Shown piece by piece: positions 3,001-38,019 of a stretch of DNA of 64,000 nt. The translations under genes and the position numbers were made by a program. The stretch is from Dehalococcoidia bacterium (GTDB lineage Bacteria > Chloroflexota > Dehalococcoidia > UBA2979): positions 1,879,538 to 1,943,537 of the forward strand of contig CBDBPS010000002.1 of NCBI GenBank assembly GCA_965208885.1, given 5' to 3'. How positions within the stretch are numbered: the first letter of the stretch is position 1; the number at the start of each line of letters is the position of its first letter. Under the pieces are notes generated by a model, which made no database searches, had not been told where the DNA came from, and saw only the letters and a list, made by a program, of their open reading frames with translations.

Positions 3001-6000
3001 AGCCGCCGGAGATCCGCGGCGACACCAGCTACACGATCGCGGAGAACAGCGCGAGACGCGTCGGCAGCTACACGGCCACGGACCCCGAGGGGGCGAGCAC
3101 CACCTGGCTGAGCCTGACGGGGACGGATGCGCGGCACTTCGTCCTCGACGAGTTCGGGACGTTGAGCTTCGCCGAGACGCCGGACTTCGACCGCTCGACC
3201 AACGACGACCACGGCCCCGAGTACCGAGTCACCCTGCGGGCCTCGGACGGGCGCACGGGGACGGCCGGGATCGGCACCTTGCCCGTCACGATCACCCTCA
3301 CGTCCGTCGCCGAGGGTCCGCTGATCGAGGGCGACACGGTCATCGACGTCAACGAGGGCCACACGGGCACGCTCGACATGTACACGAAGACCGACCCGGA
3401 GGGCTCCGCTACGAACTGGGGCGCGGTCGGCAGCACGACCGCGCTGAGCGGCGCCAACGCGGACGCCTTCGACTTCAACCAGTCGACCGGGGGGCTGACA
3501 TTCAAGAGCCCGCCCGACTTCGAGGACGGCGGGGGCTCCTACCAGGTCACGATCAACGCCAACGACGGCGTGCTGAACGGCCGCCTCGACGTCACTGTCA
3601 ACGTCGCCAACCACGATGAACGCGCCGACCAGCCGGTACAGCTCGGCGCGCAGCGCGGCGTCATCAACGTCCCGCTCACGGCGACGCTGACGGACCCCGA
3701 CAACGTGGTCAGCGCGACGTGGCAGTGGCAGCGGTCGACGAGCCGCACGGGCGGCTGGAGCGACATCGCGGGCGCTACCTCGAGCAGCACCTCGTCGAGC
3801 AGCCATACCCCGACCGCCGCCGACCGCGACCAGTACCTGCGCGCGACCGTGTCCTACGAGGACGGCCACGGCCCGGGCAAGAGCGCGGACGCCGTCACGG
3901 AGTTCACGACCGTGAACGAGCGCCTCTCGAACACCGCCCCCGTGCTGCCCGACAGCGTCGACGACATCGTGATCCCCGAGGACACCCCGGAGCGCCGCAA
4001 CGTCGGCAGCCCGATCCTGGCGACCGACGATGAGGGGGACGACCCCGTGTACACGCTGAGTGGCGCGAGCGAGTTCGAGATTGGCCGCACGACGGGCCAG
4101 ATCCAGGTCGCCGGCGGCGCCACGTTCGACTACGACCAGGGCCAGCGCAGCTACGCGCTCACCGTTACCGCCGACGACGGCTTCGGCGGCACCGACACCG
4201 TCGCCGTCACTGTCAACATCGAGGACGTGAACGAGGCGCCGGTCGCCGCCAACGACGCCCGTAGCGTCGCCGAGGACGAGTCGATCACCATCGACGTGCT
4301 CGCCAACGACAGCGACCCCGAGAACGACACCCTGTCACTGGTGAGCGCGCTGCCGCGCAGTCCGCGCTGGGGGACGGCGACCGTCGACACCTCGACCAAC
4401 CACATCAGCTACACGCCGAGGGCGAACTATCACGGCGCAGACAGCTTCATCTACCGTGCCCAGGATGACGGCAGCCCTCGCCTCTCGAGCACTGCCATCG
4501 TCTCGATCACCGTCAATGCCGTAAACGACGCCCCCGAGTTCGCCTCGGCGATGGTGGAGCGCAGCATCGCCGAGAGCGCCGAGGAAGGTGACAGCGTCGG
4601 CGCGCCCGTGACCGCGACGGACATCGACACCGGCGACACCCTCACCTACCGGCTCGCGGGCGTCGACGCCTCCTCGTTCGACATCGACGGCGCCGGCCAG
4701 ATCACCGTCGGCGCCGGGGTCAGCTTCGAGATCGCGACCAAGGACACGTACGAGGTGACGGTCACCGTCGACGACGGTAGCGGGGAGTCGAACGCCACGG
4801 CGAGCGTCGCCGTGACCATCACCGTCAGGGCCGGGCCGGTTGGGCCACTCATCATCGGGGGCGGTGGAGGCGGGCCGTCGGGGCCGACTCCGAGCGAGGT
4901 CGACTTCGAGTGGACCGTCGAGCAAGACATTGAGGAACTGGACAGCAGCCACGAGAAGCCCGGCGGCTCCTGGTCCGACGGCGTCACGCTGTGGCTGCTC
5001 GACAACCCCGACGGCGCGGGCGACGCCGTCTACGCATACGACCTCGCGACCGGCGAACGCGTCGAGGACCGTGAGTTCGACCTCGACGATACGAACCGCG
5101 CCCCGCGCGGCGTCTGGTCCGACGGCAAGACCTTCTTCTGGGTCTCGGACAGCGGCCAGGACAGGCTCTTCGCCCACGACATCACGACGGGGGACGGCAC
5201 GCCCGAGCGCGACATCGAGCTGGACCGCCGCAACGCCGACGCGCGCGGCATCTGGTCGGATGGCGCGACGATGTGGGTGCTCGACGGCGGCAAGGACGCG
5301 CTCTTCCTCTACGACCTCGAGAGCGGCGCGCTGCTGGGGGAGTGCGCGCTCGACCAGGCCAACGACGACCCGCGCGGCGTCTGGTCGGACGGCGTCACGG
5401 TCTGGGTCTCCAACCACGACCCCAAGCGCCTCTTCGCCTACCGCCTGCCAACCCGCGAGGACCTCGCCGCGGCGGCCGAGGACAAGGCGCTCGAGCGTGT
5501 CCGTGACGAGGAGTTCGGGGAGCTGAGCGCGGCAGGTAACAACAGCCCGCGCGGCCTCTGGTCCGACGGCGACGTCATGTACGTCGCCGATGAGAACGAC
5601 CGCAAGGTCTACAGCTACAACATGCCGGATGCGATCGACGCGCGGCTGGCTTCGCTGGAGCTCAGCGGAGTCGACTTCGGAGTGTTCTCACCGCTGCGCT
5701 ACGACTACGCCAGCGAGACGATCCCCCACGGCAACATCGCAACCCTGACTGCCGTGCCGGCGCAGGCGGGCGCGACGGTGCAAGTCGAGCCCCCGGACCA
5801 CGACGGAGACCCTGAGAACGGGCACCACCTGCGGCTGCTCCCCGGACTCGAGATCACCATCACGGTGACCTCAGAGGACCGCAGCCGCGAGCGCGTCTAC
5901 CGCCTGCTCCTCGGCGACGAGGAGCCCACCGGGGATGAGGATGCGGCCGAACCCGTCCCGAGCTGCCTGCGCGGCGCCGTCGCCGTTGGCTTCAGCCTCC

Positions 6001-6488
6001 TCGTCTTCGAGGGCGGAAGCCTCGAGGACCTCGTGAGCTGCGCGCAGCTCCGCCACGTCACCGCGCTCTACGCGCTGAGCGACGCCGAGTACGTCGCCTA
6101 CATCCTCGGGGCGCCCGAGTTCGTGAACGAACGTTTCGGCGAGCTCTACGCGGGTGGCGTTCCGGCACTCACTCCGTTGACGGTCAAGAGCGACGGTCCC
6201 GCGACGGCCGACCCGGGTGCTCCCGTGGTCACGGGGCCGTGGCCCGAGTGCCTCAGAGGCGAGATCGTCGAGGGCTTCAGCCTCGTGCTCTACGAGGGTG
6301 GCAGCATCGACGATCTTGCCGCGTGCGCCGAGGGCCTCGGGGTCGGAGCACTCTATATCCTCGATGACGGTATCTGGGTCTCGTACATCCTCGGAGCGCC
6401 GGAGTTCGTCAACCAGTCCTTCCGCGAGCTGTTCCCGGGCGGCGTCCCGACGGCCGCGCCGCTGACCGTGCAAGTCGACGGGCCGTAG
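6..6488 (+). CDS. Giant secreted/surface multidomain protein; the 5' end probably lies upstream of the window. It has a subtilisin/kexin-like S8 domain, a P-domain, FN3, cadherin-like repeats and the conserved C-terminal module.
   Basis: 2160-aa ORF. His motif HGTAIAGLIAARDN and Ser motif GTSGAAAIVSGVAAL of S8 are present, as is the oxyanion SNNSWG. The furin-like DDG catalytic-Asp motif reads LLEDS here. The P-domain reads FRDLQIELVSPSGKVSEL. FN3 repeats read SAITSYDLRY. Cadherin repeats read DVDEPP. The C-terminus matches the other three giant genes. Confidence 0.85.
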   Translation: MDEDTYVYIEALTFGSALALTPAILDSMGTEVSMHIVSQSTYSGHGRSYISFSVWGKLEAGTYHLRVSSSGGPTGMYLLDPVASPYNQVVEDCTAITTTQSDPLYGCQWHLNNTGQFGAGAGQDINVESVWAGGNKGEGINIALLEDSLQTDHEDLVDNVLTARNRDLIGQGNVYHPLEFHGTAIAGLIAARDNDIGVRGVAPRAKIFIYDITRGNLTNSTRAIAGTYHAEDAPHTAISNNSWGPSSLGIPRDVEPEWEEATRNGVTLGYGGKGILYVWSGGNGHLRGDHSNLAERVNYYTGTTVCAVGYDDLRAEYSEMGANLWLCAPAQSGRGDHPWITTTHIPDRYRTDFGSTSGAAAIVSGVAALVRAANTDLTWRDVKLILAASARKNDATNTGWEQGALEYGSTTTRYDFNHEYGFGMVDAAAAVALADGWSNVPAMRTSQASSGQLGDVNFRGIFLPDVDGGTTTTISNTLSLDSYVSFIEFVEIEIEFRHDRFRDLQIELVSPSGKVSELSVPSSSFSGQAHFYDSHRFGSAKHLGESAEGTWTLRLTDERFTRSGRLMSWGLKVYGHGYKPGRVSITSATAGAGLAALAWDAPADIGGSAITSYDLRYRKRGSDWTTVTNVGTLDDRTHTLTGLDGSVGGVSVWYELQVRAVNDAGSGRWSSSSNVAPWRVAPDAPRSVSTAARNQALAVSWQTPNYWGAQPLVAYHIRYIEADAMDKSDSEWTPVSRAWQTGGGELRHVIRGLTNGTAYEVQVQAENIRTTGGWSSVATGTPANINGPAEFAGTRTTRSIPENTAAGADIGDPVAARDDEGDTLTYSLRRGTNILEINSATGQLQTKFAFNHELASRYFATVAVHDGKASDATGSTAIDDTIDVTIEIEDVDEPPVVTGSETRRVRENTTAVATYSASDPEEATTTFTWSLAGDDSDDFAISSSGVLTFDPAPNFEVPTDTGGDNTYSVTVRATDDSATDPDAMTGEFEVEVTVLPVDEPPEIRGDTSYTIAENSARRVGSYTATDPEGASTTWLSLTGTDARHFVLDEFGTLSFAETPDFDRSTNDDHGPEYRVTLRASDGRTGTAGIGTLPVTITLTSVAEGPLIEGDTVIDVNEGHTGTLDMYTKTDPEGSATNWGAVGSTTALSGANADAFDFNQSTGGLTFKSPPDFEDGGGSYQVTINANDGVLNGRLDVTVNVANHDERADQPVQLGAQRGVINVPLTATLTDPDNVVSATWQWQRSTSRTGGWSDIAGATSSSTSSSSHTPTAADRDQYLRATVSYEDGHGPGKSADAVTEFTTVNERLSNTAPVLPDSVDDIVIPEDTPERRNVGSPILATDDEGDDPVYTLSGASEFEIGRTTGQIQVAGGATFDYDQGQRSYALTVTADDGFGGTDTVAVTVNIEDVNEAPVAANDARSVAEDESITIDVLANDSDPENDTLSLVSALPRSPRWGTATVDTSTNHISYTPRANYHGADSFIYRAQDDGSPRLSSTAIVSITVNAVNDAPEFASAMVERSIAESAEEGDSVGAPVTATDIDTGDTLTYRLAGVDASSFDIDGAGQITVGAGVSFEIATKDTYEVTVTVDDGSGESNATASVAVTITVRAGPVGPLIIGGGGGGPSGPTPSEVDFEWTVEQDIEELDSSHEKPGGSWSDGVTLWLLDNPDGAGDAVYAYDLATGERVEDREFDLDDTNRAPRGVWSDGKTFFWVSDSGQDRLFAHDITTGDGTPERDIELDRRNADARGIWSDGATMWVLDGGKDALFLYDLESGALLGECALDQANDDPRGVWSDGVTVWVSNHDPKRLFAYRLPTREDLAAAAEDKALERVRDEEFGELSAAGNNSPRGLWSDGDVMYVADENDRKVYSYNMPDAIDARLASLELSGVDFGVFSPLRYDYASETIPHGNIATLTAVPAQAGATVQVEPPDHDGDPENGHHLRLLPGLEITITVTSEDRSRERVYRLLLGDEEPTGDEDAAEPVPSCLRGAVAVGFSLLVFEGGSLEDLVSCAQLRHVTALYALSDAEYVAYILGAPEFVNERFGELYAGGVPALTPLTVKSDGPATADPGAPVVTGPWPECLRGEIVEGFSLVLYEGGSIDDLAACAEGLGVGALYILDDGIWVSYILGAPEFVNQSFRELFPGGVPTAAPLTVQVDGP
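4850..6488 (+). repeat. Copy 1 of 4 of the conserved ~1.65-kb 3' cassette, encoding the shared C-terminal module (Gly-rich linker, WSDG blades, cadherin-like sandwich, 2x CLRG domain).
   Basis: The cassette starts at GGGGGGPSGPTPSEVDFEW. Blades have the form RGVWSDG.T.WV.D...LFAYDL. It ends in two CLRG...GFSL.LYEGGS.DDL..CA...ALY....G..VSYILGAPEFVN units. It is near-identical at the DNA level to copies at 7083-8712 (rc), 25930-27602 and 33375-35021. Confidence 0.8.
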
Positions 6489-6787: not shown

Positions 6788-7096
6788 GTGAGGGAAGCGC
6801 CCGGCGTGGCGCCCATTCGGCCGGCTCGAAGTGACAACGGCGCGCTCGTTGGGGGATGGGAAGGGACCGTGCGGACACTCGTCGCTACCACCGACATCGC
6901 CGGCGCCACCGCTCCTACCGTGCGCCCCGAACACATGGAGCGCATCGAGGCGGCCGCGGCAGAGGTCCTCAGCGCCAACACGCGCCGGGCCTACGCGAGC
7001 GCGTGGCGCGCGTGGGTGGCGTGGTGCGCGGCCGACGGCGGCAGGCGCGAGGACGGGCAGGAGGCCTGCCGGGCGCGGGCGCTCAGTCGCCCTTGA
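6788..7096 (+). pseudogene. Tyrosine recombinase/integrase N-terminal (core-binding SAM-like) fragment. It is truncated where the 3' end of the convergent giant gene begins.
   Basis: LSANTRRAYASAWRAWVAWCAADG resembles the CB-domain motif of XerC/phage integrases. No catalytic domain follows. The ORF runs into the stop region of the 7083-14696 gene. Confidence 0.5.
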
Positions 7097-8712
7097 TGAC
7101 GAGCGGCGTCGCAGCGGCGAGGCCGTCCGGGAACAGTGCGCTGAAGCCGCGGTTGACGAACTCCGGTGCGCCGAGGATGTAGGACACGTACTCGCCGCCG
7201 ACAAGCGCGTAGAGTGCCGTGACGCCGGTCTCCCCCGCACACGCCGCGAGGTCCTGGACGCTGCCGCCGGCGTAGAGCACGAGGCTGAAGCCCGCTGCGA
7301 TCTCGCCGCGCAGGCACGCCGGCCACGCTTCGACGTCAACGGCGCCGCCGGCGGCCGGGGTGGGCGGCCCCTCGCTGCGGGCGGTCAGCGCGGTGAGCAC
7401 GGGCACACCCGCGGTGAACAGCCTGCTGAAGGTGCGGTTCACGAACTCCGGTGCGCCGAGGATGTAAGAGACGAACTCCCCCTCGTGCAGGGCATACAGC
7501 GCCGTGACGTGGCGGCCCTCGGCGCAGGCCACGAGGTCCTCGATGCTGCCGCCTTCGTAGACGACGAGGTTGAAGCCGACGCTGACGGCGCCGCGCAGGC
7601 AGCTCGCCGACGGTCCGGTCACCTGCTCCTCGGCGACGTCCGCCAGCGCCACCCGGTAGACGCGCTCGCGGCTGCCGTCCGGCGAGGTCACGGTGATGGT
7701 GACCTCGAGGCTCGGGAGAAGCCGCACGTGGTGCCCGTTCTCAGGGTCTCCGTCGTGGTCCGGGGGCTCGATCTTCACCGTCGCGCCCTCCTGCGCCGGC
7801 ACGGCAGTCAGGGTCGCGATGTTGCCATGGGGGATCGTCTCGCTGGCGTAGTCGTAGCGCAGTTGTGAGAACTCCCCGAACTCCACGCCGCTGAGGCTCA
7901 GCGAGGCGAGCCGCGTGTCGATCGCGTCGGGCATGTTGTAGGTGTAGACGCGGCCATCGCTCTCGTCGGCGACGTACATCACCGCGCCGTCGGACCAGAG
8001 CCCGCGCGGGCTGTTGTTGCCGGCGCTGCTCAGCTCGGCGAACTCCTCGTCCCGCACCCGCTCGAGTGCGGGCGGCTCCTCGGGAGGCTCGCCTTCGGGC
8101 GGCACGGGCAGCCGGTAGGCGAAGAGGCGCTTGGCGGTGTGGTCGGAGACCCAGACTGTGACGCCGTCCGACCAGAGGCCGTGCGGGCCGCTGTTCGCGT
8201 CCGCGAGCTCATACTCGCCCAGCAGCGCGCCGCTGGTGATGTCATAGACGAAGAGGGAGGGATTCGCGTTGAGCACCCAGACCGTTTCGCCGTCGGACCA
8301 GATAGCGCGCGCGTCGCGGTTCCCGTTGGCGAGCACGATCTCGCGCTCCTCGTCGCGCTCGCCCGTCTCGAGGTCGTAGGCGAAGAGGCGGTCTTGCCCG
8401 CTGTCGGCGACCCAGGCGGTCTCGCCGTTCGACCAGACGCCGCGCGGGGCGCGGTTCGTATCGTCGAGCTCGAACTCGCGGTCCTCGACACGTTCGCCGG
8501 TCGCGAGGTCATAAGCGTAGACGGCGTCGTCAGCGCCGCTGCCGTTCTGGGTGAGCCAGAGCAATGCGCCGTCCGACCACATCCCGGTGGGCGTGTCGTT
8601 GGCCGCGGCGAGCGCGTCGATGTCGCGAGTCACGTTCCACTCGAAGTCGACCGTGCTCGGAGTCGGCCCGGAAGGTCCGCCGCCACCACCGCCGAAGCTG
8701 ACGATGGTTGAG
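7083..8712 (-). repeat. Copy 2 of 4 of the conserved 3' cassette (C-terminal module).
   Basis: SFGGGGGGPSGPTPSTVDFEWNV followed by WSDG blades, a cadherin-like domain and tandem CLRG domains. Confidence 0.8.
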
Positions 8713-11700
8713 GGCTGGACGACGCGCGCGCTCACGGTAATCGTGACGGTGACGGTGGCCTGCGCGCCGGCCCGATCGATGGCGGTGATGGTCACTATGT
8801 GGTCGCTCCCAACCTCGAGCCCTGCGCTCGCGGCGACGGTGATCTGGGCCGTGTGGGGCTCGACCTCAAAGAAGCTGGAGCCGGAGAGCCGGTACGTCAG
8901 GACATCGCCCAGGAGGACGTCGCCCACGTCGACATCGGTGGCGGTCACCGGGGTGCCGACTGGCGTGCCTTCGGGGGCATGTTCGCTAACGCTCAGGGCA
9001 ATGTCGGACGCGGCGAACTCCGGCGGGTCGTTGACGGGGTTCACGGTCACGAAGACATCGGCGCTATCCGAGTGCGGCCCGGCGAAGACACGGTAGGTGA
9101 AACGGTCGACACCGTGGGTGTCGGCTGTCGGCTCATACGAGACCCGGTTGTCGGCAGTCACGGTCACGGAGCCGCTCTCCGGGTGGTTCGTGATTGAGAT
9201 CGTGAGCGGCGCGCCCTCCGGGTCGCGGTCGTTACCCAGGACATCGATGAGAGTGGGCCTGTCCTCTTGCGTTCTGGCAGTGTCGTCCTCCGCCATGGGC
9301 GGTTCGTCCACGTCGTCGATGGTAATGGTGACGAACGCGCTGTCGCTGGCGTTGGAGGAATCTGAGGCGGTGACAGTGACGAAGTAGGTGTCGCGGCCCT
9401 CGCGGTTGAGCATGGTTCCCACACCCACGCGGATCTGGCCGCTGTCGCCGTCGACGGCAAAGCTGCCGGCGTCGGCGCCCGAGAGCGTGTAGCTGGGCAC
9501 ATCGCCCGGGTCGGGGTCGGTCGCCTCCACGACCGCACCGACGGGGGTGCCGGCCGCCGAGTTCTCTGCCACCGAGCGGTCCTCGGTGGCGTTGGGGAAC
9601 GCAGGCGGGTTGTTGATGACGGGCGCAGCCTGGGTCCGGTTCATCGAGGCCACCTGCTTGTCCTTGCCGGAGCCGTGACCATCGGTGTAGTCGACCGTCA
9701 CGCGCAGGTAGTGGTTGAGGTCGGCGTCGAGAGGCGTATAGCGGCTGCCCGTGGCGCCCCCGATGGTGCTCCAGTTGCTGCGGTTCTGCGACCGCTCCCA
9801 CGTCCAGGACTGGCCGGAAATGTTCCCGTCAAGGTCGGCCAGCGTCGCCGTCAGTTCGGCGTCTACCTGCGGCTGCTGCGAGGAGAGGCTGAGCGTACCG
9901 GGCTCGTCGACGTTGGTGACATTGACGGTCACGTCGTGCTCCACGGTGTTGACGACGTCTCGGGCTTCGACGATGACTTCGTACGTGTTGTTCAGACTGG
10001 CGTCGGCGGGATCCTCGTAGTTGGGCGTGGAGTTGAAGCGGAGCACACCGTTGCTGAAGTTGAAGTCGCCGCTGTCGGGCCCGATCAGCCGCAGTGCGAC
10101 CGTGCCGCCCTCGGGATCGGTCGCGCTATAGGTGGCGATCGAGCCCGTAGCGTTCTCGTCGAAGTCCATGCTGTCAGGGCCCGTGACCTCCGGCGGCTCG
10201 TCCACGTCGGTGACCGCGACGGTCACGTCGAGCTTGCTGGGCAGGCCCCCGCTCTCCCTGTCCGAGGTGTTCACCGTGACCTGGTAGCGGTTGTCCCTGT
10301 TGCTGTCCGCCGGGATGTCTGCGTCCGGTGGGCTCTTGAAGCGCAGTTCCCTCGTGCATGGGTCCGTCCCATCGGTGAGTTCGAATTTGCTCGCGTCCGG
10401 CCCCGACAGGGCCCTCCAGGTGACCGCCTCTCCCTCCGGGTCGGTGGCTGTGTAGCAACCGAGGGAGACGTCGCTGTTCTCCGCGATGGTGACGTGGGCG
10501 AGGCCCGTGAGTAGCGGGGCCTCATCCACGTTCGTGACCTGGATCGTCACGGGGAGCTCGCTCTTGTTGACCCCATCACTGGCGGCGACCTCGAGGTGGT
10601 AGAGGCTGTCTTCGTTCGCATCGAGTGGCCGGTCGTGATCGGGAGGCAGGCGGAAGCTGAGTTCGCCGGAGGCATTGATCCGCAGCGCGTCCTTGTCTTC
10701 GTCGGCGCCCTCGACGGACCACGTAAGGGCGAGGCCTTCCGGATCGGTGGCCGTGTACGTCTCCAGCACGCCGGTGCTGTTCTCCGGCCGGGTGATGTGG
10801 GTGACGCCGTCGACGGTGAAGCCTTCGTTGACGTCGACAACGGTCACGGTGACCACGATGTCGTCGTCGATGGCGTCGTCGTTGTCGCCGTGCACATCAC
10901 GGCCGTCGCTGACGTTCACCGTGAGGGTGTGACTGGTCTGTTCCTCGTAGTCGAGGAGCCTGGTCAACTGCAGCCCGCCGGTCCGGCTGTCCAGGCTGAA
11001 GTAGTCGCTGGGAGCGCTCAGGGAGTAGGTCAAGAGGTTGCCATCGGGGTCCGTGGCCTCTACCGCGTCACCGGCCGCGCTATCCAGGGTCGTATCCTCG
11101 GACAGGCTGCGAGCGCCTGTCTCGCTCTCCGGGAATTTCGGGTCGGTATTCTGCAGATTGGGGGTTCCCGATACGGTCGCCGACCACGGGCTGTCGCCGG
11201 CGCTGTTGGTTGCGAGCACCTGCACGTCGTAGCCGATGCCGTTCTCCAGGCTGAGGATGTTGTACCGGTGCAGCCCGTCGCCGAGCGCCACGCCGGGGGT
11301 GGATGTGGCGCTCCAGTTGGCGTCGACGGCCTTCTCATCGACGGTGGCGTCGCTGCGAATGTGGCGCACCTGGTAGCCGCTGATGTCTGCGCCGCCGGTG
11401 AAGCCCGGTTCGCGCCACACAACCCCGAGCTCCTGGTGGCGGGGCGCGACCAGGGTGATGGCGGGCGCCGCCGACACTACCACCGCCGTGCCCTTGCTCT
11501 CGCTCGGCGACCAGGGCCCCGCGCCGGCGTCGTTGACCGCGCGGATACGCAGGTCGTACCAGGTACCGGCTGACAGGCCGGAGAGCTCGTAGCTCAGAGC
11601 GCCGCCGTCCGTCTCCCAGATGCCGGTCACTTCGGTCCAGTTGGTATCTGACTTGTCCGAGGCGGTGCTGGCGATGTAGCTCAGGTCGTAGCTCGTGATT

Positions 11701-14696
11701 TCCGACTCGCCGGTGTCACCCGCATTGGGCGCCTTCCACTCGGCCGTGAGGGATCCGTCTCCGGCCTCCACGTGGTCGATAAAGGGATAGCCGGGCGCGT
11801 AGCCATGCCCGTAGACGGTCAGGCTCCAGCCGCGCATTCGCCCGCGATTGCCGCTCTGCCTGTCAGTGACGCGTAGCGTCCACTCGCCTGCGGGATCCTC
11901 GCCCAGGAATCGCGCCGACCCCATCCTGAACTCCCCGTTGAGCGGCGCTTCTTGCGGTAGCACCAGGCCCAGGAATCTTGAATAGCCCTGCCCGTCGTTC
12001 ACCAACCTGGACACCGACCCGGAGGGCGACACCAGGTCGATATCGAGGTCCCTGAAGTCATCGTGGTTCATGTTGACCGTGATCGCGACGTACTCGACGA
12101 AGTCCACGAATCCGTCAACGGTCAATGACCGCGTGACCCTGGTGGAAGTGCCGTTGGAGGGGGCGTCAGGGATCGAGAAGGAAGAGCCCTGGTAGGTCGA
12201 GGTGGTCTTTCTCATCGAGGGAGCATTCGTCCAGCCATCGGCAAGGTCCACGGCCGCGGCCGCATCGACCATGCCGAAGCCGTACTCGTGGTTGAATGAG
12301 TACTTGTCGTCGTCCTCGGTGGCGCCGAACCTCAGCGCTCCCTCCCGCCAGCCGCTGTCACGTGGGTCGTTCTTCCTTGCGGACGCGGCCAGGATCAGCT
12401 TCACGTCCCGCCAGGTCAGGTCCGCGTTGACGGATCGCATCAAGGCGACAACGCCCGACACGACAGGGGCGGCAGCCGACGTCCCCCCGAAGTCCGCCGT
12501 CCAGCCGCCGTTGGTGGTGGTCGTTATTCCAGGGGTTGTTCCCCGGCCGTTGGATGGGCCGCACACCCACAGATTGGCGCCGTGCTCGGAATAGACGCTC
12601 CTCGTGTCCCTGTGGTCGACGGCGCAGACCGCGATGACACCGTAGTAATTGGCGCGCCCGTCGAGGTTGGATTCGTCCGTCCGTTCGGCCCCGTTGCCGG
12701 CCGCCCAGACGTAGGAGATGCCCTTCCCGCCGTACCCCTCATTGAGGCCGGTTTCGATCGAACTGATCCAGGTGCTGCGCGGACTCGTGGGGCTACCATT
12801 GTCGATGAACCCCCAACTGTTGTTGGAGACGGCTGTCTCCAACAGGTTGCGGGTCATCGCGTCCGCTATGGCGTCGTCGACCACGTCGAGCAGGAGGTCA
12901 TACGCGTACAGGGTCGCCCGTGGCGCGACGCCACGCACTCCGAGGTTGTTGTCACGGGCGGCTACCAGGCCGGCGACGGCGGTGCCGTGGGTTTCGTGCA
13001 GGTGAAGGACGTCCGAACCCTGGTAAGAGTGATTCCGCGTCTCATCAACGTTCTCACGCAGGTCCGGGTGTTCGTAGTACATCCCGTCGTCGACGATTGC
13101 GACATTGACACCCGCGCCCAGCGTGGTCTCCCAGGCTTCCTCGGCGTTGATGTCGAAGCCCGCGCCACCATCAAACTGGTCCGTGTTGTTCAGGTGCCAC
13201 TGGCATCCGTAGAACGTATCTTCCTGGGAGTGCTCGATGGGGAGGCACTCGTCGAGGAACGCTCGGCCTCGGTAGTTCTCGAGGAAATGGAGCGCGTACG
13301 TCTCGCTGGAGGATACCGTGGCGGTCACCCGGAAGTAGTGCGTTCCCGGAGCCAAATATCCCGTCACATCGAAAGCGCGGCCGGGATCGCGGAAGATTGA
13401 GACATAGGGAAGCAGGCCCCCAGTCTCGTTGCCGTCGTTGTCGACGAGTGTAATTTCGACATCCGGTTCGTCCCCCGCAACACCCTGAGCGTAGACCCTC
13501 GTCCAGCTCGGAGAAGTGACGACCATACGGTAATACTGGTGGTCGCTGGCGGAGGTGCTTTCTCCGGCGGTGAGGAAATGCACGCCCACCGGGGAGGCAG
13601 TCTCCGTCGTGGCGCCGGTACTCTCTACCGGATGCACGTGCAACGTGTACGACCCGGACCTGGCACGATAGCCTTTGATAATGATGTAGTATGTCCCGGG
13701 TTCAAGCACCCTGGTCATCATCGGACCCAGTATATTAGTCTCAATGTGTCCGTCATCGTTCTTGGCAATGTGCTCCAAGGATTCGGAAGTCGTGTCCCAG
13801 GAATAGAGATCCATCACCGTATCCACTTCTCCAGTGACGTACATCCATACTGTGGTTTTCTCGCTGAGCTCAAACTTAAAGTAGTTATGTTCAAGATCGT
13901 CTTTTGTACGGCCCGGTGTTGCGGTCCCCAGTTCCACCTCCGTTGCGTTTGCCGTGGAGTCACCCGGACTCGCTGCGCGGAGGTGGAGCGTATAGGGACC
14001 CGTCGCTGTGCCCTCGAAGCCACCTACCTCGACGTAATACGTCACCGGAACCGTCACATTCGCGGCTATCCGCAGCTCGAAGTTGAGCGGGTTGCCCGGG
14101 GCCACGGCGTCGTCTGCGGTGGTGTATGGAAGGCCAGGGTTGATTCGGAACGTGCCAACCGTGTCAGTCGGGCCGGTCGTGTAAATCAACATGTCGGCGG
14201 ACTCGGTGAGCGAGATCCTGAAGTAGTCCCTGTCATCCCCGGCGCCGATACGGCCGGGGATAGATCCGCCCAGGTCGATCACCGAGGCCGTGTCCCCCGA
14301 TCCGCCGTGGTCGTTCGTAGCCTCTGCGACCGCGTCCGACCACGCCCCCGGTCCGGTGGCGTTCAGCGCCCGTAGCTGCAGGTCGTAGCTGGTGTCTTTG
14401 GTCAACCCGCTGAGGACGTAGAAGAGTGCGTCCGCACTCCACACGCCTTCCTTCACCGTCCAGTCGTCGTCCCCCTTGCTTGTTGCGTCGCTCAGCACGT
14501 AGCGCAAGTCGTAACTGGTGATTGCCGAGCCGCCATCGCTGGACGGGGCGCTCCAGAGGACGGTCAGTGAGTCATCGCCGCTGCTCACCGTGGTGATGGT
14601 GGGCGCCCCGGGCGCCACCGCCTGCGCGCGGACGCCGGTCACCGACAACAGCCCCCAGAGTGCGAGGCACCCTGACAGCAGCGCCAGGCGCTTCAC
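7083..14696 (-). CDS. Giant secreted furin/kexin-like subtilase (S8 + P-domain) with FN3, three PPC-type domains, cadherin-like repeats and the conserved C-terminal module.
   Basis: The likely GTG start at 14696 overlaps the upstream stop as GTGA. The signal peptide reads (M)KRLALLSGCLALWGLLSVTGVRAQA. PPC motifs read DDRDYFRISL and DLEHNYFKFEL. The catalytic motifs VAIVDDGMYYEHPDL, HGTAVAGLVAARDN, SNNSWG and GTSAAAPVVSGVVAL align with furin. The P-domain reads FRDLDIDLVSPSGSVSRL. The C-terminal 540 aa match the other giant genes. Confidence 0.85.
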   Translation of the reverse strand: MKRLALLSGCLALWGLLSVTGVRAQAVAPGAPTITTVSSGDDSLTVLWSAPSSDGGSAITSYDLRYVLSDATSKGDDDWTVKEGVWSADALFYVLSGLTKDTSYDLQLRALNATGPGAWSDAVAEATNDHGGSGDTASVIDLGGSIPGRIGAGDDRDYFRISLTESADMLIYTTGPTDTVGTFRINPGLPYTTADDAVAPGNPLNFELRIAANVTVPVTYYVEVGGFEGTATGPYTLHLRAASPGDSTANATEVELGTATPGRTKDDLEHNYFKFELSEKTTVWMYVTGEVDTVMDLYSWDTTSESLEHIAKNDDGHIETNILGPMMTRVLEPGTYYIIIKGYRARSGSYTLHVHPVESTGATTETASPVGVHFLTAGESTSASDHQYYRMVVTSPSWTRVYAQGVAGDEPDVEITLVDNDGNETGGLLPYVSIFRDPGRAFDVTGYLAPGTHYFRVTATVSSSETYALHFLENYRGRAFLDECLPIEHSQEDTFYGCQWHLNNTDQFDGGAGFDINAEEAWETTLGAGVNVAIVDDGMYYEHPDLRENVDETRNHSYQGSDVLHLHETHGTAVAGLVAARDNNLGVRGVAPRATLYAYDLLLDVVDDAIADAMTRNLLETAVSNNSWGFIDNGSPTSPRSTWISSIETGLNEGYGGKGISYVWAAGNGAERTDESNLDGRANYYGVIAVCAVDHRDTRSVYSEHGANLWVCGPSNGRGTTPGITTTTNGGWTADFGGTSAAAPVVSGVVALMRSVNADLTWRDVKLILAASARKNDPRDSGWREGALRFGATEDDDKYSFNHEYGFGMVDAAAAVDLADGWTNAPSMRKTTSTYQGSSFSIPDAPSNGTSTRVTRSLTVDGFVDFVEYVAITVNMNHDDFRDLDIDLVSPSGSVSRLVNDGQGYSRFLGLVLPQEAPLNGEFRMGSARFLGEDPAGEWTLRVTDRQSGNRGRMRGWSLTVYGHGYAPGYPFIDHVEAGDGSLTAEWKAPNAGDTGESEITSYDLSYIASTASDKSDTNWTEVTGIWETDGGALSYELSGLSAGTWYDLRIRAVNDAGAGPWSPSESKGTAVVVSAAPAITLVAPRHQELGVVWREPGFTGGADISGYQVRHIRSDATVDEKAVDANWSATSTPGVALGDGLHRYNILSLENGIGYDVQVLATNSAGDSPWSATVSGTPNLQNTDPKFPESETGARSLSEDTTLDSAAGDAVEATDPDGNLLTYSLSAPSDYFSLDSRTGGLQLTRLLDYEEQTSHTLTVNVSDGRDVHGDNDDAIDDDIVVTVTVVDVNEGFTVDGVTHITRPENSTGVLETYTATDPEGLALTWSVEGADEDKDALRINASGELSFRLPPDHDRPLDANEDSLYHLEVAASDGVNKSELPVTIQVTNVDEAPLLTGLAHVTIAENSDVSLGCYTATDPEGEAVTWRALSGPDASKFELTDGTDPCTRELRFKSPPDADIPADSNRDNRYQVTVNTSDRESGGLPSKLDVTVAVTDVDEPPEVTGPDSMDFDENATGSIATYSATDPEGGTVALRLIGPDSGDFNFSNGVLRFNSTPNYEDPADASLNNTYEVIVEARDVVNTVEHDVTVNVTNVDEPGTLSLSSQQPQVDAELTATLADLDGNISGQSWTWERSQNRSNWSTIGGATGSRYTPLDADLNHYLRVTVDYTDGHGSGKDKQVASMNRTQAAPVINNPPAFPNATEDRSVAENSAAGTPVGAVVEATDPDPGDVPSYTLSGADAGSFAVDGDSGQIRVGVGTMLNREGRDTYFVTVTASDSSNASDSAFVTITIDDVDEPPMAEDDTARTQEDRPTLIDVLGNDRDPEGAPLTISITNHPESGSVTVTADNRVSYEPTADTHGVDRFTYRVFAGPHSDSADVFVTVNPVNDPPEFAASDIALSVSEHAPEGTPVGTPVTATDVDVGDVLLGDVLTYRLSGSSFFEVEPHTAQITVAASAGLEVGSDHIVTITAIDRAGAQATVTVTITVSARVVQPSTIVSFGGGGGGPSGPTPSTVDFEWNVTRDIDALAAANDTPTGMWSDGALLWLTQNGSGADDAVYAYDLATGERVEDREFELDDTNRAPRGVWSNGETAWVADSGQDRLFAYDLETGERDEEREIVLANGNRDARAIWSDGETVWVLNANPSLFVYDITSGALLGEYELADANSGPHGLWSDGVTVWVSDHTAKRLFAYRLPVPPEGEPPEEPPALERVRDEEFAELSSAGNNSPRGLWSDGAVMYVADESDGRVYTYNMPDAIDTRLASLSLSGVEFGEFSQLRYDYASETIPHGNIATLTAVPAQEGATVKIEPPDHDGDPENGHHVRLLPSLEVTITVTSPDGSRERVYRVALADVAEEQVTGPSASCLRGAVSVGFNLVVYEGGSIEDLVACAEGRHVTALYALHEGEFVSYILGAPEFVNRTFSRLFTAGVPVLTALTARSEGPPTPAAGGAVDVEAWPACLRGEIAAGFSLVLYAGGSVQDLAACAGETGVTALYALVGGEYVSYILGAPEFVNRGFSALFPDGLAAATPLVIKGD

Positions 14697-15772
14697 CGGG
14701 TCGTGGACTCGCGGCGCCAGTTGGGGCTGGAAATTGCGACGCCCTCCTGGCCTGCCAGGGCATTGGCAAGCTCCAGCGACGGCAGCCCCGGCGCGGTCTC
14801 CACGAAGAAGGCGTTGGCCGTGAACGACCGCTCCGAGATGCGGGTCTGCGCGATGCCGTTCGCCGAGAAGAAGCGGTCGACCTCGGACTCGCTCCACTCC
14901 GGGTCGAGGGCGAGCAGCACCCCACCCGGGAGCGTCATCAGCTCGCCCTCGGCGGAGAGGAACACAGGCTCGGTGTTGCTGGAGTGCTGCGCCTGCCTCA
15001 CGACGATGCCGGTGGAGTCGGCTGCGGGCTCTGCGACGACACCGGGGACCAGCCGCACCTGGCGCGTGTGTTCACCATCCTGCCAGGTGAACGCCGGGCC
15101 CTCATCCGCTAGCAGGGCCCTCACGACCGCCTGTTGCTCGGGGGCGGGCGTGGGGCTCCCCTTCGCCCGCGCATCGGAGTTGTCAGGGCCGCCCGATCCT
15201 CTGGCCTGGGCATTCTCGCCTTCGCTCGGAGGGGCCGGGCGCCCCTTGGGAGACACGGGCGGATCGGGTTTCGCCGCCGCGGGGCTCGGGACAGGGTCCG
15301 CTACAGTCGCGCCACTCTCGGGCGAGGGCGCCGCCGCGGGACTCGGAGCAGCATCCGGGGAAGACGTTGCCACCGGCGTTGCCGGCTCTTCGCGCGGGGC
15401 GGGTGTCGTCTCAGTCGCCGACGCTGGTGACAGCGGCCTCGCAGCTCCCTCGCCACGGACGGGCGTCACCTCTTCCCGGGGCTGTGCGGCGGGCGGGCTG
15501 GCATTGTTCTGAGCAGCCTCGTCGGGGGTGCTGCACCCCACTGCCGCCGCCATCCAGATCACTACGAAGCTGGCCGCAATCACGGCGGCGAGGTGGGCGA
15601 TGGGCCCACTTCTGTTGGCCTCCCGGGTGTCGTCGTGGCGAGCGCTCGGCCGGGGCGAAGCTGAGGACGCCCTTCGCGCGCGGTACGGCACCGTGAAGCG
15701 TCGCCCCACAGACACGGGCTCGCATCTCCCACCTGCAGAGTCGCTTCCCGGTGCTGTCCTTCCTGAGTCCAT
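14693..15772 (-). CDS. Putative lipoprotein with a Pro/Ala/Ser-rich linker and a C-terminal domain weakly reminiscent of a subtilase propeptide (I9-like). It is translationally coupled to the downstream subtilase.
   Basis: The hydrophobic stretch IAHLAAVIAASFVVIWMAAAVGC ends in a lipobox-like AVGC. A long PAPE/PSPA linker follows. The C-terminal ~150 aa end in ...NAFFVETAPGLPSLELANALAGQEGVAISSPNW. The stop TGA overlaps the GTG start of the 7083-14696 gene. The true start is uncertain and may be nearer 15700 or as far as 15862. Confidence 0.55.
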   Translation of the reverse strand: MDSGRTAPGSDSAGGRCEPVSVGRRFTVPYRARRASSASPRPSARHDDTREANRSGPIAHLAAVIAASFVVIWMAAAVGCSTPDEAAQNNASPPAAQPREEVTPVRGEGAARPLSPASATETTPAPREEPATPVATSSPDAAPSPAAAPSPESGATVADPVPSPAAAKPDPPVSPKGRPAPPSEGENAQARGSGGPDNSDARAKGSPTPAPEQQAVVRALLADEGPAFTWQDGEHTRQVRLVPGVVAEPAADSTGIVVRQAQHSSNTEPVFLSAEGELMTLPGGVLLALDPEWSESEVDRFFSANGIAQTRISERSFTANAFFVETAPGLPSLELANALAGQEGVAISSPNWRRESTTR

Positions 15773-17045: not shown

Positions 17046-17249
17046 CGCCCAGACATTCTGACTGGAAAACCGCCGTCGGTTCCGGCTCTCTTGCTTCGCC
17101 GACTGGAATGGTCTGGGGACGATCAGAATGGCGCACGCGTGGCCCTCCCGTGTGTTCCGACCGACTGCAACGCCTGCCCCGGCAACGATGCGAGGCCAGA
17201 CCGTCCGTCGCCCCGGCGGGCCTGGCTGCTCCAGGCCGGGGGGCTCACG

Positions 17250-20200
17250 GTGATCGGTGGTTGCCGCGTGGCGGCCGGGCGGGCCCTCGTCGTGATCGCT
17301 CTGGGTATCGCCCTCTATGGCCTTGTGGCCCCGCGCTTCGGCGACCCGCCTGCCGCGGCACAGGAGGGTTCCGTCCCGGCCCGACCCACGGGCCTCACGG
17401 TCACCAGCGTCAGCCACAACTTCGTCGAACTGAGCTGGGACGACCCCGTCGACCCGTCCATCACCCATTACGAGGTGCTGCGGCGCGACCCGGCCGTCCA
17501 CGCCGTCGGCGAGTTCGAGACGGTCGACCCGGGCACCGGCTCGAACGCCACCAGCTACCGCGACGGCAGCGTGTCGCCTGGGCGGAGCTATCTCTACCGG
17601 GTCAAGGCAGTGAATCCCCACGGAAGCAGCGAGCAGTCGGGGTACGCCCGGGCCCACACCCCGGCGGCTCCTGCCATCGAAGAGTCCCATGCCGGGAACG
17701 GCGTGAGGCAGGCTCCCCCCGGCGCCGAATCGACCGATGCGGACCTGAGCGCGCTCAGCCTCAGCGCCGGGACGCTCGCCCCTGCCTTCGACCCGGCCCG
17801 GACCTCCTATACGGCGTCGGTGGAGCACTCGCAGTCCCGGGTCACGGTGACCGCCACGGCCTCCGATGCAGCCAACGCCACGGTCGAGTTCCTCGACGGC
17901 GACGACATGACGCTGGTGGACGCCGACGGCAACACCGAGGGCCACCAGGTGGACCTCGCCGTGGGCGACAACACGGTCAAGGTGAAGGTGACCGCCGAGG
18001 ACAACGCCACGATCCGGACCTACACGCTGGTCGTCACCCGCGCCGAATCGGACAACACCGACCTGAGCGACCTCAAGGTCAACGGCGTCAGCGTTCCCGG
18101 GTTCAGCGCCCACGTGTCGTACGGTGCGGTGGGCGTGCAATACGGCGTCGCCCCCTCGGTGACGCGGGTAACGGTTGAGGGCGTCACCGCCGACTCCAAC
18201 GCCGGGGTGGAGTACTCGGGCGCCGACGCCGACGGCGGGACCGGCGGGCAACAGATCGACCTGCTCGAGGGCGGCAATGAGCTGACGATCACCGTCACGG
18301 CGGCCGACGGCGTCACCACCAGAGACTACCTCGTCAGCGTCAACCGGGGGACGAACGCTCCCTTCGGCTGGCGGGCGCATGACGACTTCGACACGCTCCG
18401 GGCGGGTGGGACTGTCCTTCCCCAGGGCATGTGGTCCAACGGCACGACCTTGTGGGTGACGGACGACTTCGATGCGAACGACAAGCTCTTCGCCTATGTG
18501 GTAGCCACCGGGTTGCGGGATCCCGACAAGGACTTTGACACCCTGCAAGCGGCCGGGAACGAGTCCATGAGAGGCATCTGGTCGGACGGCACGACCATGT
18601 GGGTGGTGGACTGGCTCGACGAGAAAATCTACGCCTACGACCTGGAGACGCGACAGCGGAACTCCGGCAAGGACTTCAACTCCCTGCAAGCGGCCGGGAA
18701 CACCAGCCCCGCGAGCATCTGGTCGGACGGCATGACCATGTGGGTGGCGGACTGGGAGGACGACAAGCTCTACGCCTACGACCTGAACACGCGGCAGCGG
18801 GACTCCCGAAGAGACGTCGACACCCTGCGAGCGGCCGGGCAAACCTACCCTCTGGGCATCTGGTCGGACGGCACGACGATATGGGTGGGAGACTCTTTCG
18901 ACGAAAAGCTCTACGCCTACGACCTGGCGAGCGGGAAGCGGGACCGCGGCAGGGACTTCGACACTCTGGTGGCGGCCGGGAACCGCAGCCTCAGGGGCCT
19001 CTGGTCCGACGGCGCCACCATGTGGGTATCGGACAGATCCGAGGACAAGCTCTTCGCCTACAACATGCCCGGCAACGCCGACCTGACCACGCTCAGCATC
19101 AGCCCCGGGACGCTGGCCCCCGCCTTTCACCGGGTCGAGACCTCCTACACGGCGTCGGTGGTGCATTCGCAGTCCCGGGTCACGCTGACCGCCACGGCGT
19201 CCGATGCGGACGACGCCACCATCGAGTTCCTGGACGCCTCGGACGCGGCGCTGGATGACGCCGACGGCAACACCACAGGCCACCAGGTAGACCTCGCCAC
19301 GGGCGAGAACACGATCAAGGTGAAGGTGACCGCCGCAGACAACGCCACGACCCGCACCTACACGCTGGTCGTCACCCGCGCCGAATCGGACAACACCGAC
19401 CTGAGCGATCCGCAGGTCAACGGCGTCAGCGTTCCCGGGTTCAGCGCCAACGCGTCGTACAGTGCGGTGGGCGTGCAATACGGCGTCGCCCCGTCGGTGA
19501 CGCGGGCGACGATTCGGGGCGTCACCGCCGACTCCAACGCCACGGTGACCTACTCGGGCACAGACGCCGACGGCGGGACCGGCGGACACCAGATCGACCT
19601 GCTCGAGGGCGCGAATGAGCTGACGATCACTGTCACCGCCGCGGACGGCGTCACAACCAGAACCTACCCCGTCAGCATCAACCGGGGGACGGACGCCCCC
19701 TTCGGCTGGCGGGCGCAGGACGACTTCGACGCCCCGTTTGCACCTGGGAACGGAGCTCCCGATGGCCTCTGGTCGGACGGCACGACCATGTGGGTGGCGA
19801 GCGAGGCAGAAAGCAAGATCTTCGCCTATGTGCTGGACACCGGCTTGCGGGATCCCGGCAATGACTTCAACGGCCTCATGGCGGCCGGGAACATCACCCC
19901 CAGAGGATTGTGGTCCAACCGCACCACCATGTGGGTGGTGGACAGGATTCACGAGAAGATCTACGCGTATCAGCTCGCCACCCGCCAGCGAGACCCCGAC
20001 AAGGACTTCACCGCCCTGGCGGCGGCCGGGAACGACGATCCCGGGGACATCTGGTCCGACGGCACGACCATGTGGGTGGCGGACCAGGATGACAAGAAAC
20101 TCTATGCCTATCAGCTCGCCACCGGGCAGCGGGACGCCAGCAAGGACTTCAACACGTTGGCGTCCGGCAACAGTTACCCCGAGGGCATCTGGTCCGACGG

Positions 20201-28790: not shown

Positions 28791-29108
28791 GTGGTCAGTC
28801 CGGTCGGCAACCCCCCCGGCTGTAAAGGTGGCGCGCGCGTGGCCGTTCAGGACCTCGCCGTCGTACGCGGACGCGATTCACTCGTGCACTCGCGGACGCA
28901 TCTCATTAACCACGTGCGCGACGACGTCAGGCGCGGGCCGCCGCGCTGCCGTTGTCGACTTCGCCGCATGCGGGGAACGAGAGCGCTCCGAGTCTGTCTG
29001 AGATAGATGCGCGTTCGACTCCTGCCATGAACCCCGGTCCGTGCCGACGGGAATAGGACAGGTTAGGTGAGCCCATCAACACGCGTTTCTGGAGGCGTCC
29101 GTCGGCGG

Positions 29109-35343: not shown

Positions 35344-36500
35344 GTGAAGCAGGCTCCGGGGGTAGAACATGCGGTCGAGCGCGAGAAGATCGCGGAACGG
35401 TCGACGCGCGGCAAGGCGGAGCGCGCCCGCAACTGCAAACTCGCGCAGGGCACAGGCGCCGGTCGCTACGGGTACATCTACGAACCCGAAACGGGGCAGC
35501 GCGTGCTCAACCCCCGACAGGCGGCAGTCGTCCGCCGCATCTTCGAGGAGTGGGTCTCAGGTAAGGCTGTGAATCGCATCACCACCGACCTGAACATCGA
35601 CGGCATCCCGACGTTGACTGGCAAGCAGTGGTACCCGGTGACGGTCCGCCGGATCCTGCGCAACGAGACCTACACCGGCCGCACGGTCTACCGGCGCACC
35701 AGGGTGGAGATGGTTCGGCAGTCCGGCGCTCGCCGCAGGAAGCGGTGCGTGGTCGAGCAGGATCCGAGCGAGCACATCGTGATCGAGGGGGCGTCGCCGC
35801 AGATCATTTCCCCCGAGTCGTACGCGCTCGCTCAGTCGCGGTTCGAGGACCCCGAGCGCCGTAGCGCACGGGCGCCGTCGCGGACGTATCCGCTGCGTGG
35901 GCGGCTGCGCTGCCGAGATTGCGGTGCGGGCATGGTCGGTCAGCCGGTGCAGCACGGGCGCTACTTCTACTACCGCTGCAATCGCCTCTACCTGTCCAAC
36001 GCGGAGAAGCGCTGCTCAGGTCGGCAGGTCCGTAAGGAAACCCTTGAGGATGCCGTCCGCAGCACCCTCGAAGACGTCCGGAACTCGCCATCGGCATGGC
36101 CGAGCAGCTGCGCGAGGGGACGGATCACGCCGCCCGGCTGGACTAAGCTCGCGCGCGAGCTCAGCCACATCGACGACAGCCAGGACCGCCTCGTCGACCT
36201 CTGCACGGACGGCGAGGTCACCAAGGACGCCTCCCAGCAGAAGCGGGAACGGCTCACAAGGCGCAGGGCCTCGCTTGAGCGCGAGCAGGCTCAGCTCCGC
36301 TCAGAGTGCGAGCCCGGCCCCGATCCCGAGATGCTGCGGGAGGTGCTGGCGTTCGTCCGCGAGTGGGTGACGAAGGCCGAAGGCGACGACCTCGAGTTGC
36401 TGCTTTCAGGCGCTGAACGTGCGCGTGGACGTCTCTCCAGAGGAGGCCGATGTGCTCGTCGAGGTCCCGATGATGGAGGCGCTCGAGGGGGCAGATTTTG
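35344..36500 (+). pseudogene. Large serine recombinase lacking its N-terminal resolvase catalytic domain. Only the recombinase domain, zinc ribbon and coiled coil remain.
   Basis: YGYIYEPETGQRVLNPRQAAVVRRIFEEWVSGKAVNRITTDLNIDGIPTLTGKQWYPVTVRRILRNETYTGR is the recombinase domain. CRDCGAGM...YYRCNRL is the zinc ribbon. The in-frame TGA sits immediately upstream of the GTG at 35344, so no catalytic Ser domain is present. The 3' end reads through into the small conserved ORF. Confidence 0.7.
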
Positions 36501-36522
36501 TCACCACTGCACGAACATCGGT

Positions 36523-36582
36523 ATGAAGCTCCGGTCGTGCGAAAAAGGGTGCGCCAGGCTGTATCTGGCGCTCTCGTTCTGA
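36523..36582 (+). CDS. Conserved 19-codon small ORF, copy 1 (MKLRSCEKGCARLYLALSF). It is part of an ~88-nt repeated element that starts near 36495.
   Basis: Three copies, at 36523, 44177 and 57827, share a TTTcTCACCAC-N15-ATG leader and 19 codons. Differences between copies are mostly synonymous or conservative. Confidence 0.5.
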   Translation: MKLRSCEKGCARLYLALSF

Positions 36583-37767: not shown

Positions 37768-38019
37768 ATGCCTGACGACAAGGACAAGATCACGATCATT
37801 GTGAACGGCCGCGAGCGGATCGTCACGTCGGACGAGCTCTCGTTCAGCGAAGTGCTCGCACTCGCCTTCGACCCGGTGCCTTCGGGTCCGAACTGGGAGT
37901 TCACCGTCACCTACCGTAACGGCGCTGGCCGCCCGCCCGATGGTCGGCTCCGCCCCGGCGGTCAGGTCAAGGTCGAGGACGGAACCGTCTTCAATGCCAC
38001 CGCAACTGATAAGTCGTAG
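37768..38019 (+). CDS. Ubiquitin-like beta-grasp protein (multiubiquitin/Bub-type Ubl).
   Basis: The 83-aa protein reads MPDDKDKITIIVNGRERIVTSDELSFSEVLALAF... It has a strong SD (GAGGAGGA), and its stop overlaps the start of the E2/E1 fusion. It does not end in Gly-Gly. Confidence 0.6.
   Translation: MPDDKDKITIIVNGRERIVTSDELSFSEVLALAFDPVPSGPNWEFTVTYRNGAGRPPDGRLRPGGQVKVEDGTVFNATATDKS

Follow-up and report, generated by a model that had tools for sequence, protein, structure and literature searches.

A giant kexin-like protease of Dehalococcoidia and its separately encoded, membrane-anchored partner as a candidate split zymogen system

In the 64,000-nucleotide stretch of a Dehalococcoidia genome analysed here (the window), a gene on the minus strand (7083-14696) encodes a giant secreted protease of the kexin type, and directly upstream of it lies a second gene (14693-15772), which encodes a small membrane-anchored protein. 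We propose, with a probability that we put at roughly 0.6, that these two genes form a split zymogen system, in which the upstream gene supplies in trans the prodomain that is missing from the protease. The fold of the small protein, its tail of fixed length ending in Lys or Arg, and the occurrence of relatives in which its domain is fused in cis to the protease, fit a trans-acting prodomain that serves both as chaperone and as inhibitor.

Subtilases are the textbook case of folding assisted by an intramolecular chaperone. The closest known system to the one described here is Aeromonas ASP/ORF2, in which ASP, a propeptide-less kexin-like subtilase, needs ORF2, the product of the gene just downstream (PMC5638518, PMC9549277). 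ASP has been named as an exception to the use of an N-terminal propeptide as intramolecular chaperone (PMC9549277). ORF2 acts as a folding helper and temporary inhibitor of ASP, with a half-maximal inhibitory concentration (IC50) of around 84 nM, and its last three residues are -Gln-Pro-Lys, of which the Lys sits in the catalytic centre of ASP (PMC5638518). Structures of ASP/ORF2 are available (PDB 3HJR, 3WQB; Kobayashi et al. 2015, as cited in PMC5638518 and PMC9549277).

A giant protease devoid of a cis prodomain

The stretch is GC-rich (0.59-0.73 when read in 2-kb windows), and its minus-strand open reading frame (ORF) 7083-14897 contains a GTG codon at 14696, which opens a typical signal peptide, MKRLALLSGCLALWGLLSVTGVRAQA, as read from the sequence, and yields a product of 2537 amino acids (aa). 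The identical product is present in a public protein collection (P0404), so that an independent gene call chose the same GTG start. The features of this protein, all on the minus strand, are the following.

7083..14696, minus strand: giant secreted kexin-like protease/adhesin, 2537 aa plus stop (ORF list, translation, Pfam)
14625..14696, minus strand: signal peptide, residues 1-24, with AQA cleavage motif (read from sequence)
13281..14615, minus strand: FN3 (28-125) and three PPC-like beta-sandwich units (127-241, 245-355, 360-472) (Pfam, sequence pattern)
12273..13118, minus strand: Peptidase_S8 catalytic domain, residues 527-808 (Pfam, Kex2 alignment)
13089-13091, minus strand: catalytic Asp536 (Kex2 alignment)
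12987-12989, minus strand: catalytic His570 (Kex2 alignment)
12477-12479, minus strand: catalytic Ser740 (Kex2 alignment)
11817..12098, minus strand: proprotein-convertase P-domain, residues 867-960, which contains FRDLDIDLVSPSGSV (Pfam, Kex2 alignment)
8667..11804, minus strand: FN3, cadherin, Cadherin_4 and Big_9 modules, an adhesin-like stalk (Pfam)
7086..8636, minus strand: C-terminal cassette, with 'WSDG' propeller-like repeats over ~240 aa, one cadherin-like domain and a pair of Cys-containing repeats of ~100 aa each (Pfam, window comparison)

The Pfam scan matched Peptidase_S8 (residues 527-808, E 1.8e-40) and P_proprotein (PF01483, residues 867-960, E 2.7e-15), together with fn3 in three stretches, PPC weakly, and several modules of the cadherin, Cadherin_4 and Big_9 families. 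This agrees with the initial annotation of this DNA, which had placed an S8 domain and a P-domain in a giant bacterial protein and had quoted two strings, VAIVDDGMYYEHPDL and FRDLDIDLVSPSGSV, both of which are present in the protease. The region spanning both domains (residues ~490-975) aligns end to end with Kex2 (E 1.2e-49), with the alignment extending across the P-domain to its 'VYGH' end, and also with furin (E 6.7e-39) and with ASP from Aeromonas sobria (E 2.6e-38). In the sequence alignment with Kex2, Asp536, His570 and Ser740, as well as the oxyanion Asn668, match the catalytic residues of that enzyme and follow the subtilase order. Judged by its sequence, therefore, the protein is a kexin-subfamily (S8B) member of S8, with a P-domain and no cis propeptide. 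This architecture had been presented at first as eukaryote-style; as such, S8 plus P-domain is ordinary in bacteria, with Aeromonas ASP as a solved example.

The absence of a cis prodomain was addressed as follows. Inhibitor_I9 gave no match in the protease in the Pfam scan. Residues 25-490 consist of FN3 and three units of ~110 aa that share a PPC-like pattern (...D.DYF+h.L... hY..G..DT ... G.Y.L+h), the borders of which were set by eye from this common pattern, and these units run straight into 'EDTFYGCQWHL', which is aligned with the first residues of mature Kex2. Because FN3 and the PPC-like units occupy the whole N-terminal region, there is no space for an alpha/beta prodomain of the I9 type; moreover, the PPC units of the homologue P0277 are all-beta in an AlphaFold2 (AF2) model. 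A hidden cis prodomain is ruled out by the Pfam scan, by this FN3/PPC layout and by the all-beta model of the homologue, and the initial description of FN3 and PPC domains after the signal peptide, with no I9 propeptide, stands. The N-terminal cis prodomain with autocatalytic cleavage, which is a criterion for S8B, is not found in this protease, ASP being the same exception.

The partner family, its pairing and its fusions

The upstream gene has the following features, also on the minus strand.

14693..15772, minus strand: small membrane-anchored partner, 359 aa from ATG 15772, TGA overlapping the protease GTG (ORF, translation)
15533..15601, minus strand: hydrophobic segment, residues 58-80, IAHLAAVIAASFVVIWMAAAVGC, ending in lipobox-like AVGC (translation)
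14696..15139, minus strand: conserved C-terminal domain, residues 212-359, ~148 aa (homologue alignment)
14933-15094, minus strand: N-terminal beta subdomain of this domain (predicted fold)
14723-14920, minus strand: beta-alpha-beta-beta-alpha-beta half of this domain (predicted fold)
14696..14728, minus strand: SPNW motif and 7-residue tail RRESTTR, with C-terminal Arg (homologue alignment)

The true start of the partner is either ATG 15772 or GTG 15715, the latter with an upstream GGGAG. Its hydrophobic segment, 23 residues long, is followed by a Pro/Ala/Ser-rich linker of 131 aa and then by the conserved domain, which ends ...GVAISSPNWRRESTTR. The anchor may be either a lipid, through a lipoprotein signal, or a transmembrane helix acting as signal anchor. 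The lipoprotein assignment made at the outset is plausible in view of the AVGC that closes the hydrophobic segment, although the residue at -3 is atypical and the N-region is long. The homologues vary in this respect, with clear LAGC or LVGC lipoboxes in some and plain transmembrane anchors in others; an N-terminal hydrophobic stretch is present in 54/120 of them and a lipobox-like motif in 21/120.

The C-terminal domain is recognised by no family in Pfam or NCBIfam, the latter giving sub-threshold low-complexity matches only, and Inhibitor_I9 (PF05922) does not match the window partner at E<=1. Used as a query, the domain brings up 570 small proteins of 130-260 aa that stand alone and lack any Pfam annotation. 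A profile built from 37 members reaches 1002 cluster representatives at 50% identity (358 with E<=1e-30), and in nearly all of these the domain lies at the extreme C-terminus. When one genome per species was scanned, 258 relatives came up, almost all of them in metagenome-assembled genomes (MAGs) of Dehalococcoidia or Tepidiformaceae; Acidimicrobiia, 'Ca. Spongiisociaceae' and a gammaproteobacterial bin contribute a few, and some of the scanned genomes hold multiple copies.

With the family alignment, AF2 modelled the domain at a mean predicted local distance difference test (pLDDT) of 87.7. In its C-terminal half, strands 74-78, 101-104, 110-113 and 134-139 and helices 84-93 and 119-128 are predicted to form a beta-alpha-beta-beta-alpha-beta unit, as in subtilase prodomains and as expected of the I9 fold. 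This predicted likeness to I9 is at the fold-class level only: a Foldseek comparison of the model with PDB returned nothing significant (best E 0.09), and the modelled fold is compatible with a prodomain but generic, hence not discriminating.

The most telling feature of the partner family is its C-terminus. The protein ends exactly seven residues past the SPNW-type motif in 117/120 close homologues and in 137/142 further cluster representatives, and it terminates with Lys or Arg in 109/120 and 117/142, respectively. Selection on both the exact position and the chemistry of a free C-terminus is what would be expected if it were recognised as a product-like ligand, and we propose, from the sequences, that the tail RRESTTR could be a product-like P7-P1 segment that occupies the active site of the protease. 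On the side of the protease, Asp632, Asp674 and Asp679 align in sequence with Kex2 D277, D320 and D325, which we take to be its S1 acids. Across 71 paired loci, Asp and His of the triad are conserved in 71/71 each and the Ser in 68/71, the other three being alignment gaps; counting the oxyanion Asn, the catalytic residues are kept in 68-71 of the 71. Asp occupies all three S1-aligned positions in 49/71. As a side observation, the proteases of the only two Tyr-ending partners among these 71 pairs have His at the Kex2-D277 position; the terminal residue of the partner may co-vary with the S1 pocket, an anecdotal indication that may reflect a single lineage.

Pairing of the two genes is the rule across genomes. 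First, in all five loci from an exact protein look-up, the next gene downstream of the small one, in the same orientation, encodes a protein of 1850-2750 aa. Three of these (L003 to L005) are one locus from three sources, the giant protein of which reads fn3-PPC-S8-P_proprotein-fn3-Cadherin in precomputed Pfam. Second, at 79 distinct loci from the genome scan, tblastn found an orthologue of the S8 plus P-domain region (47-57% identity) 0.9-2.3 kb downstream on the same strand wherever the flank suffices; L075, L080 and L083 reach a contig edge, their flanks being too short for a call. The distance between the small gene and S8 varies, which shows that the catalytic domain always comes after 290-750 residues of FN3/PPC. 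Only two loci with enough flank, L031 and L069, depart from the rule, and both are degenerate. In L031 (10464-18178) the small gene is kept and is followed by a signal peptide-FN3 fragment and then by a cadherin-rich giant protein without S8; in L069 (10255-11106) it is likewise kept, next to a degenerate ORF fragment only, which has no Pfam match.

The TGA of the partner ORF (14693-14695) overlaps the GTG start of the protease as GTGA, as had been noted initially. The translational coupling that had been read from this holds for the window and for L001, where the 4-nucleotide overlap recurs, but not for L002 and L003, with gaps of ~80 nucleotides. Separately, L023, L029 and L040 each carry two small-gene/protease pairs, divergent and within about 4 kb, and several genomes, e.g. 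OZ253575.1 and OZ244720.1, carry at least three pairs, the system having multiplied within genomes. A sequencing or frameshift error is ruled out as the origin of the split, since the split form occurs in more than 70 genomes and each half has a separate export signal. These data support the upstream protein as a conserved, dedicated partner of the protease.

The domain and its tail also occur within one long chain, in 16 retrieved proteins (P0268-P0272, P0275, P0277, P0279, P0296, P0341, P0375, P0376, P0382, P0139, P0149 and P0187) as well as in P0141 and P0151. Wherever the sequence extends far enough, the domain is N-terminal to PPC-S8-P. Type 1 fusions read signal peptide-FN3-domain-tail-PPC x4-S8-P-..., as in P0141 (3846 aa), P0151 (5724 aa), P0149 and P0268-P0272, with junctions (marked by a slash) SPNWWREVGTR/QDPGE, ...REIEAR/QDPGE and ...REVEAK/QEPGE. 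In the type 2 fusion, exemplified by P0277, the order is transmembrane anchor-linker-domain-tail-PPC x3-S8-P, with junction SPNWWREVEAK/TADDHGD; this is the layout of the small protein joined to the protease minus the signal peptide of the latter. Caution is called for with P0277, as the '2x' in the name of its contig may point to low coverage. Type 1 is not a read-through artefact, because its domain order differs from that of the split pair, and it recurs across many independent clusters. At L085, a fused locus, no stand-alone small gene lies upstream. In many fusions a Lys or Arg is retained at the tail position.

A proposed split zymogen and its alternatives

We infer from these observations that the partner binds the protease, assists its folding and inhibits it, along the following lines. 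The giant protein, which has no intramolecular propeptide, would be exported by its own signal peptide, and the partner would be tethered at the outer face of the membrane through its lipid or transmembrane anchor and its long Pro/Ala-rich linker. The ~148-aa domain would bind the nascent catalytic domain through its beta-alpha-beta-beta-alpha-beta half and serve as a template for its folding. The 7-residue tail would then remain in the substrate cleft, its terminal Arg or Lys in the acidic S1 pocket, in the position that a cis propeptide takes just after autocleavage, and the protease would stay inhibited, possibly tethered to the surface, until the partner dissociates or is degraded.

Several results weigh against this proposal. 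At the level of sequence, the domain had initially been described as faintly I9-like, a resemblance that is not borne out: even at E<=10, none of the 37 scanned members of the partner family matches Inhibitor_I9, and these members have no Pfam family in common. The family profile had 0 matches at E<=10 among all PDB chain sequences, a set that should include 3WQB chain B, and hhalign of the family against the propeptides of furin and subtilisin BPN' was insignificant. At the level of architecture, 290-750 FN3/PPC residues lie between the N-terminus of the protease and S8 in split and fused forms alike, whereas canonical subtilases have their prodomain directly next to the catalytic domain, and the basic residue at the tail position is missing in the divergent fusions P0275 (Q), P0376 and P0382. 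At the level of structure, AF2 of the fusion P0277[67-950], run with a checked alignment, gave a predicted template modelling score (pTM) of 0.49 and a pLDDT of 35-60 for the S8 core and did not place the tail, of which residues 156-160 have a pLDDT <50 in this low-confidence model. The fold, the Lys/Arg tail and the cis-fusions fit the trans-acting chaperone or inhibitor suggested at the start; the seating of the tail in the active site is putative.

A further step, which we regard as tentative, is that the partner family represents a second class of trans-encoded subtilase prodomain, either independently evolved or diverged beyond recognition. Here, the prodomain gene would have been split off exactly at the autoprocessing site and would later have gained a membrane anchor, so that a single molecule could catalyse folding, plug the active site and tether giant protease-adhesins to the surface; the cis-fused relatives would record an ancestral or a re-fused state.

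An alternative that we consider unlikely is that the small protein is purely a membrane tether or adaptor, which anchors the giant protein via a non-catalytic module and has no part in its folding or inhibition. The membrane anchor and the long flexible Pro/Ala linker of the partner would suit such a role, as would the giant protein, in which the Pfam scan recognised no anchor of its own, and tight gene pairing fits any obligate binding partner. However, a tether leaves unexplained why the protein ends exactly seven residues past SPNW on Lys or Arg, and why the S1 acids are kept together with such a terminus. Furthermore, in the signal peptide-FN3-domain-PPC-S8 fusions the domain occurs without any membrane anchor. 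A mere tether would also imply a prodomain-less kexin-like subtilase, known only for ASP, which uses ORF2 (PMC9549277).

Alternatively, the partner could be a dedicated inhibitor or immunity protein only, comparable to POIA1 or yeast PBI2, which would block the active site to shield the surface of the producing cell, with the PPC units or the P-domain assisting the folding of the protease. The tail and S1 evidence would be the same for such an inhibitor as for the split zymogen, with which it overlaps heavily, the chaperone step being the sole difference. Subtilases, however, generally need a prodomain-type chaperone to fold, and the cis-fused forms resemble classical zymogens, which leaves this possibility with a low probability in our estimate, even though ORF2 inhibits as well, as said above (PMC5638518).

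Lastly, an unrelated neighbour or secretion accessory (e.g. for export or glycosylation) with a coincidental resemblance to a prodomain would accord with the lack of sequence similarity to any prodomain, with the generic fold of the partner and with the failure of the AF2 fusion model to place a tail, but it is very improbable given the recurrent cis fusion with the protease, the near-universal adjacency in more than 70 genomes with several paralogous pairs per genome, the survival of the gene as a lone relic only where the S8 part has degenerated, and the conserved basic C-terminus.

Genomic setting, known systems and implications

The window holds three further giant ORFs. A second giant paralogue with S8 and P_proprotein (6-6488, plus strand), convergent with the gene under study, is cut by the start of the window. 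It reads INIALLEDSL where the studied protease reads NVAIVDDGMY, with a Glu aligned with the catalytic Asp, and the motifs around His, Asn and Ser are retained; perhaps this paralogue is a pseudo-protease, or its Asp is shifted. A partner gene for it, if there is one, would be located beyond the window. The second, at 17091-27602 (plus strand), is a 3503-aa protein with PPDK_N (pyruvate phosphate dikinase ATP-binding) at residues 2612-2930 (E 1.7e-18), and the third, at 29067-35021 (plus strand), is a 1984-aa protein with an arylsulfotransferase (ASST) domain at 553-833 (E 1.3e-19). The latter two thus carry different enzyme-like modules on the same chassis, and PPDK_N within a cadherin/FN3 surface protein is odd. 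All four giants share the C-terminal cassette (4914-6479, plus strand; 7086-8636, minus strand; 25989-27557, plus strand; 33447-34994, plus strand), with 60-81% identity over the last 125 aa and Cys-containing repeats (…GFxLVxYxGGS…YILGAPEFVN…). The cassette has no proper family match, only a sub-threshold one to a Cadherin-like family in Pfam and sub-threshold ones to NCH3; it may serve all four proteins for anchoring or export. The giant genes are followed downstream, at 35344-57764, by a series of mobile-element or defence-like genes.

35344-36582: serine recombinase
37940-39166: DUF6791+ThiF
40903-42111 and 43040-43849: AbiEii/AbiEi toxin-antitoxin
47157-53487: DUF6361 next to a large helicase-C protein
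56493-57764: Fic

When compared with ASP/ORF2, the present pair is alike in the following. First, both proteases are kexin-like S8 enzymes with a P-domain and without a cis propeptide. Second, in both systems an adjacent, co-oriented gene encodes a small protein. Third, both small proteins end in a basic residue, the docking of which at the catalytic centre has been seen for ORF2 and is inferred here. The differences are that the partner gene lies upstream, whereas that of ORF2 lies downstream of asp; that a profile search against PDB chains (E<=10) detected no sequence homology to ORF2; that the partner has an additional beta subdomain and is anchored to the membrane through a long linker of low complexity; that the protease, a surface protein of 2537 aa with many domains, carries FN3/PPC ahead of its catalytic domain; that the hosts are mostly Chloroflexota (Dehalococcoidia), as opposed to the Proteobacteria of ASP/ORF2; and that cis-fused relatives exist for the present family.

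With respect to furin and Kex2, the catalytic and P-domains align end to end and the acidic S1 residues are kept, and the partner ends in Arg or Lys, as their prodomain does after cleavage. In contrast, the prodomain would here be a separate gene product, so that no autocleavage is needed; the tail lacks a dibasic motif; the hidden Markov model of Inhibitor_I9 has no match; and the host is bacterial and the molecule giant and adhesin-like. POIA1 (Pleurotus) and yeast PBI2 differ again in being soluble, I9-detectable and unlinked to one specific protease, whereas the present family is not I9-detectable.

Homologues of ORF2 have been reported in five genera only (PMC5638518). If the proposal holds true, the partners described here would make up a second family of prodomains encoded by genes of their own, far larger than the first and unrelated to it in sequence, making the splitting of prodomains a recurrent solution, and the split and fused forms would offer a natural series for studying recognition between prodomain and catalytic domain. 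It would also give a function to a large set of proteins without Pfam annotation. The membrane anchor suggests a way to hold a protease specific for basic residues inactive at the surface of its own cell. A sponge-symbiont setting may be read from a few MAG and sample names only. More broadly, these observations bear on how Chloroflexota deploy giant 'eukaryote-like' FN3/cadherin proteins.

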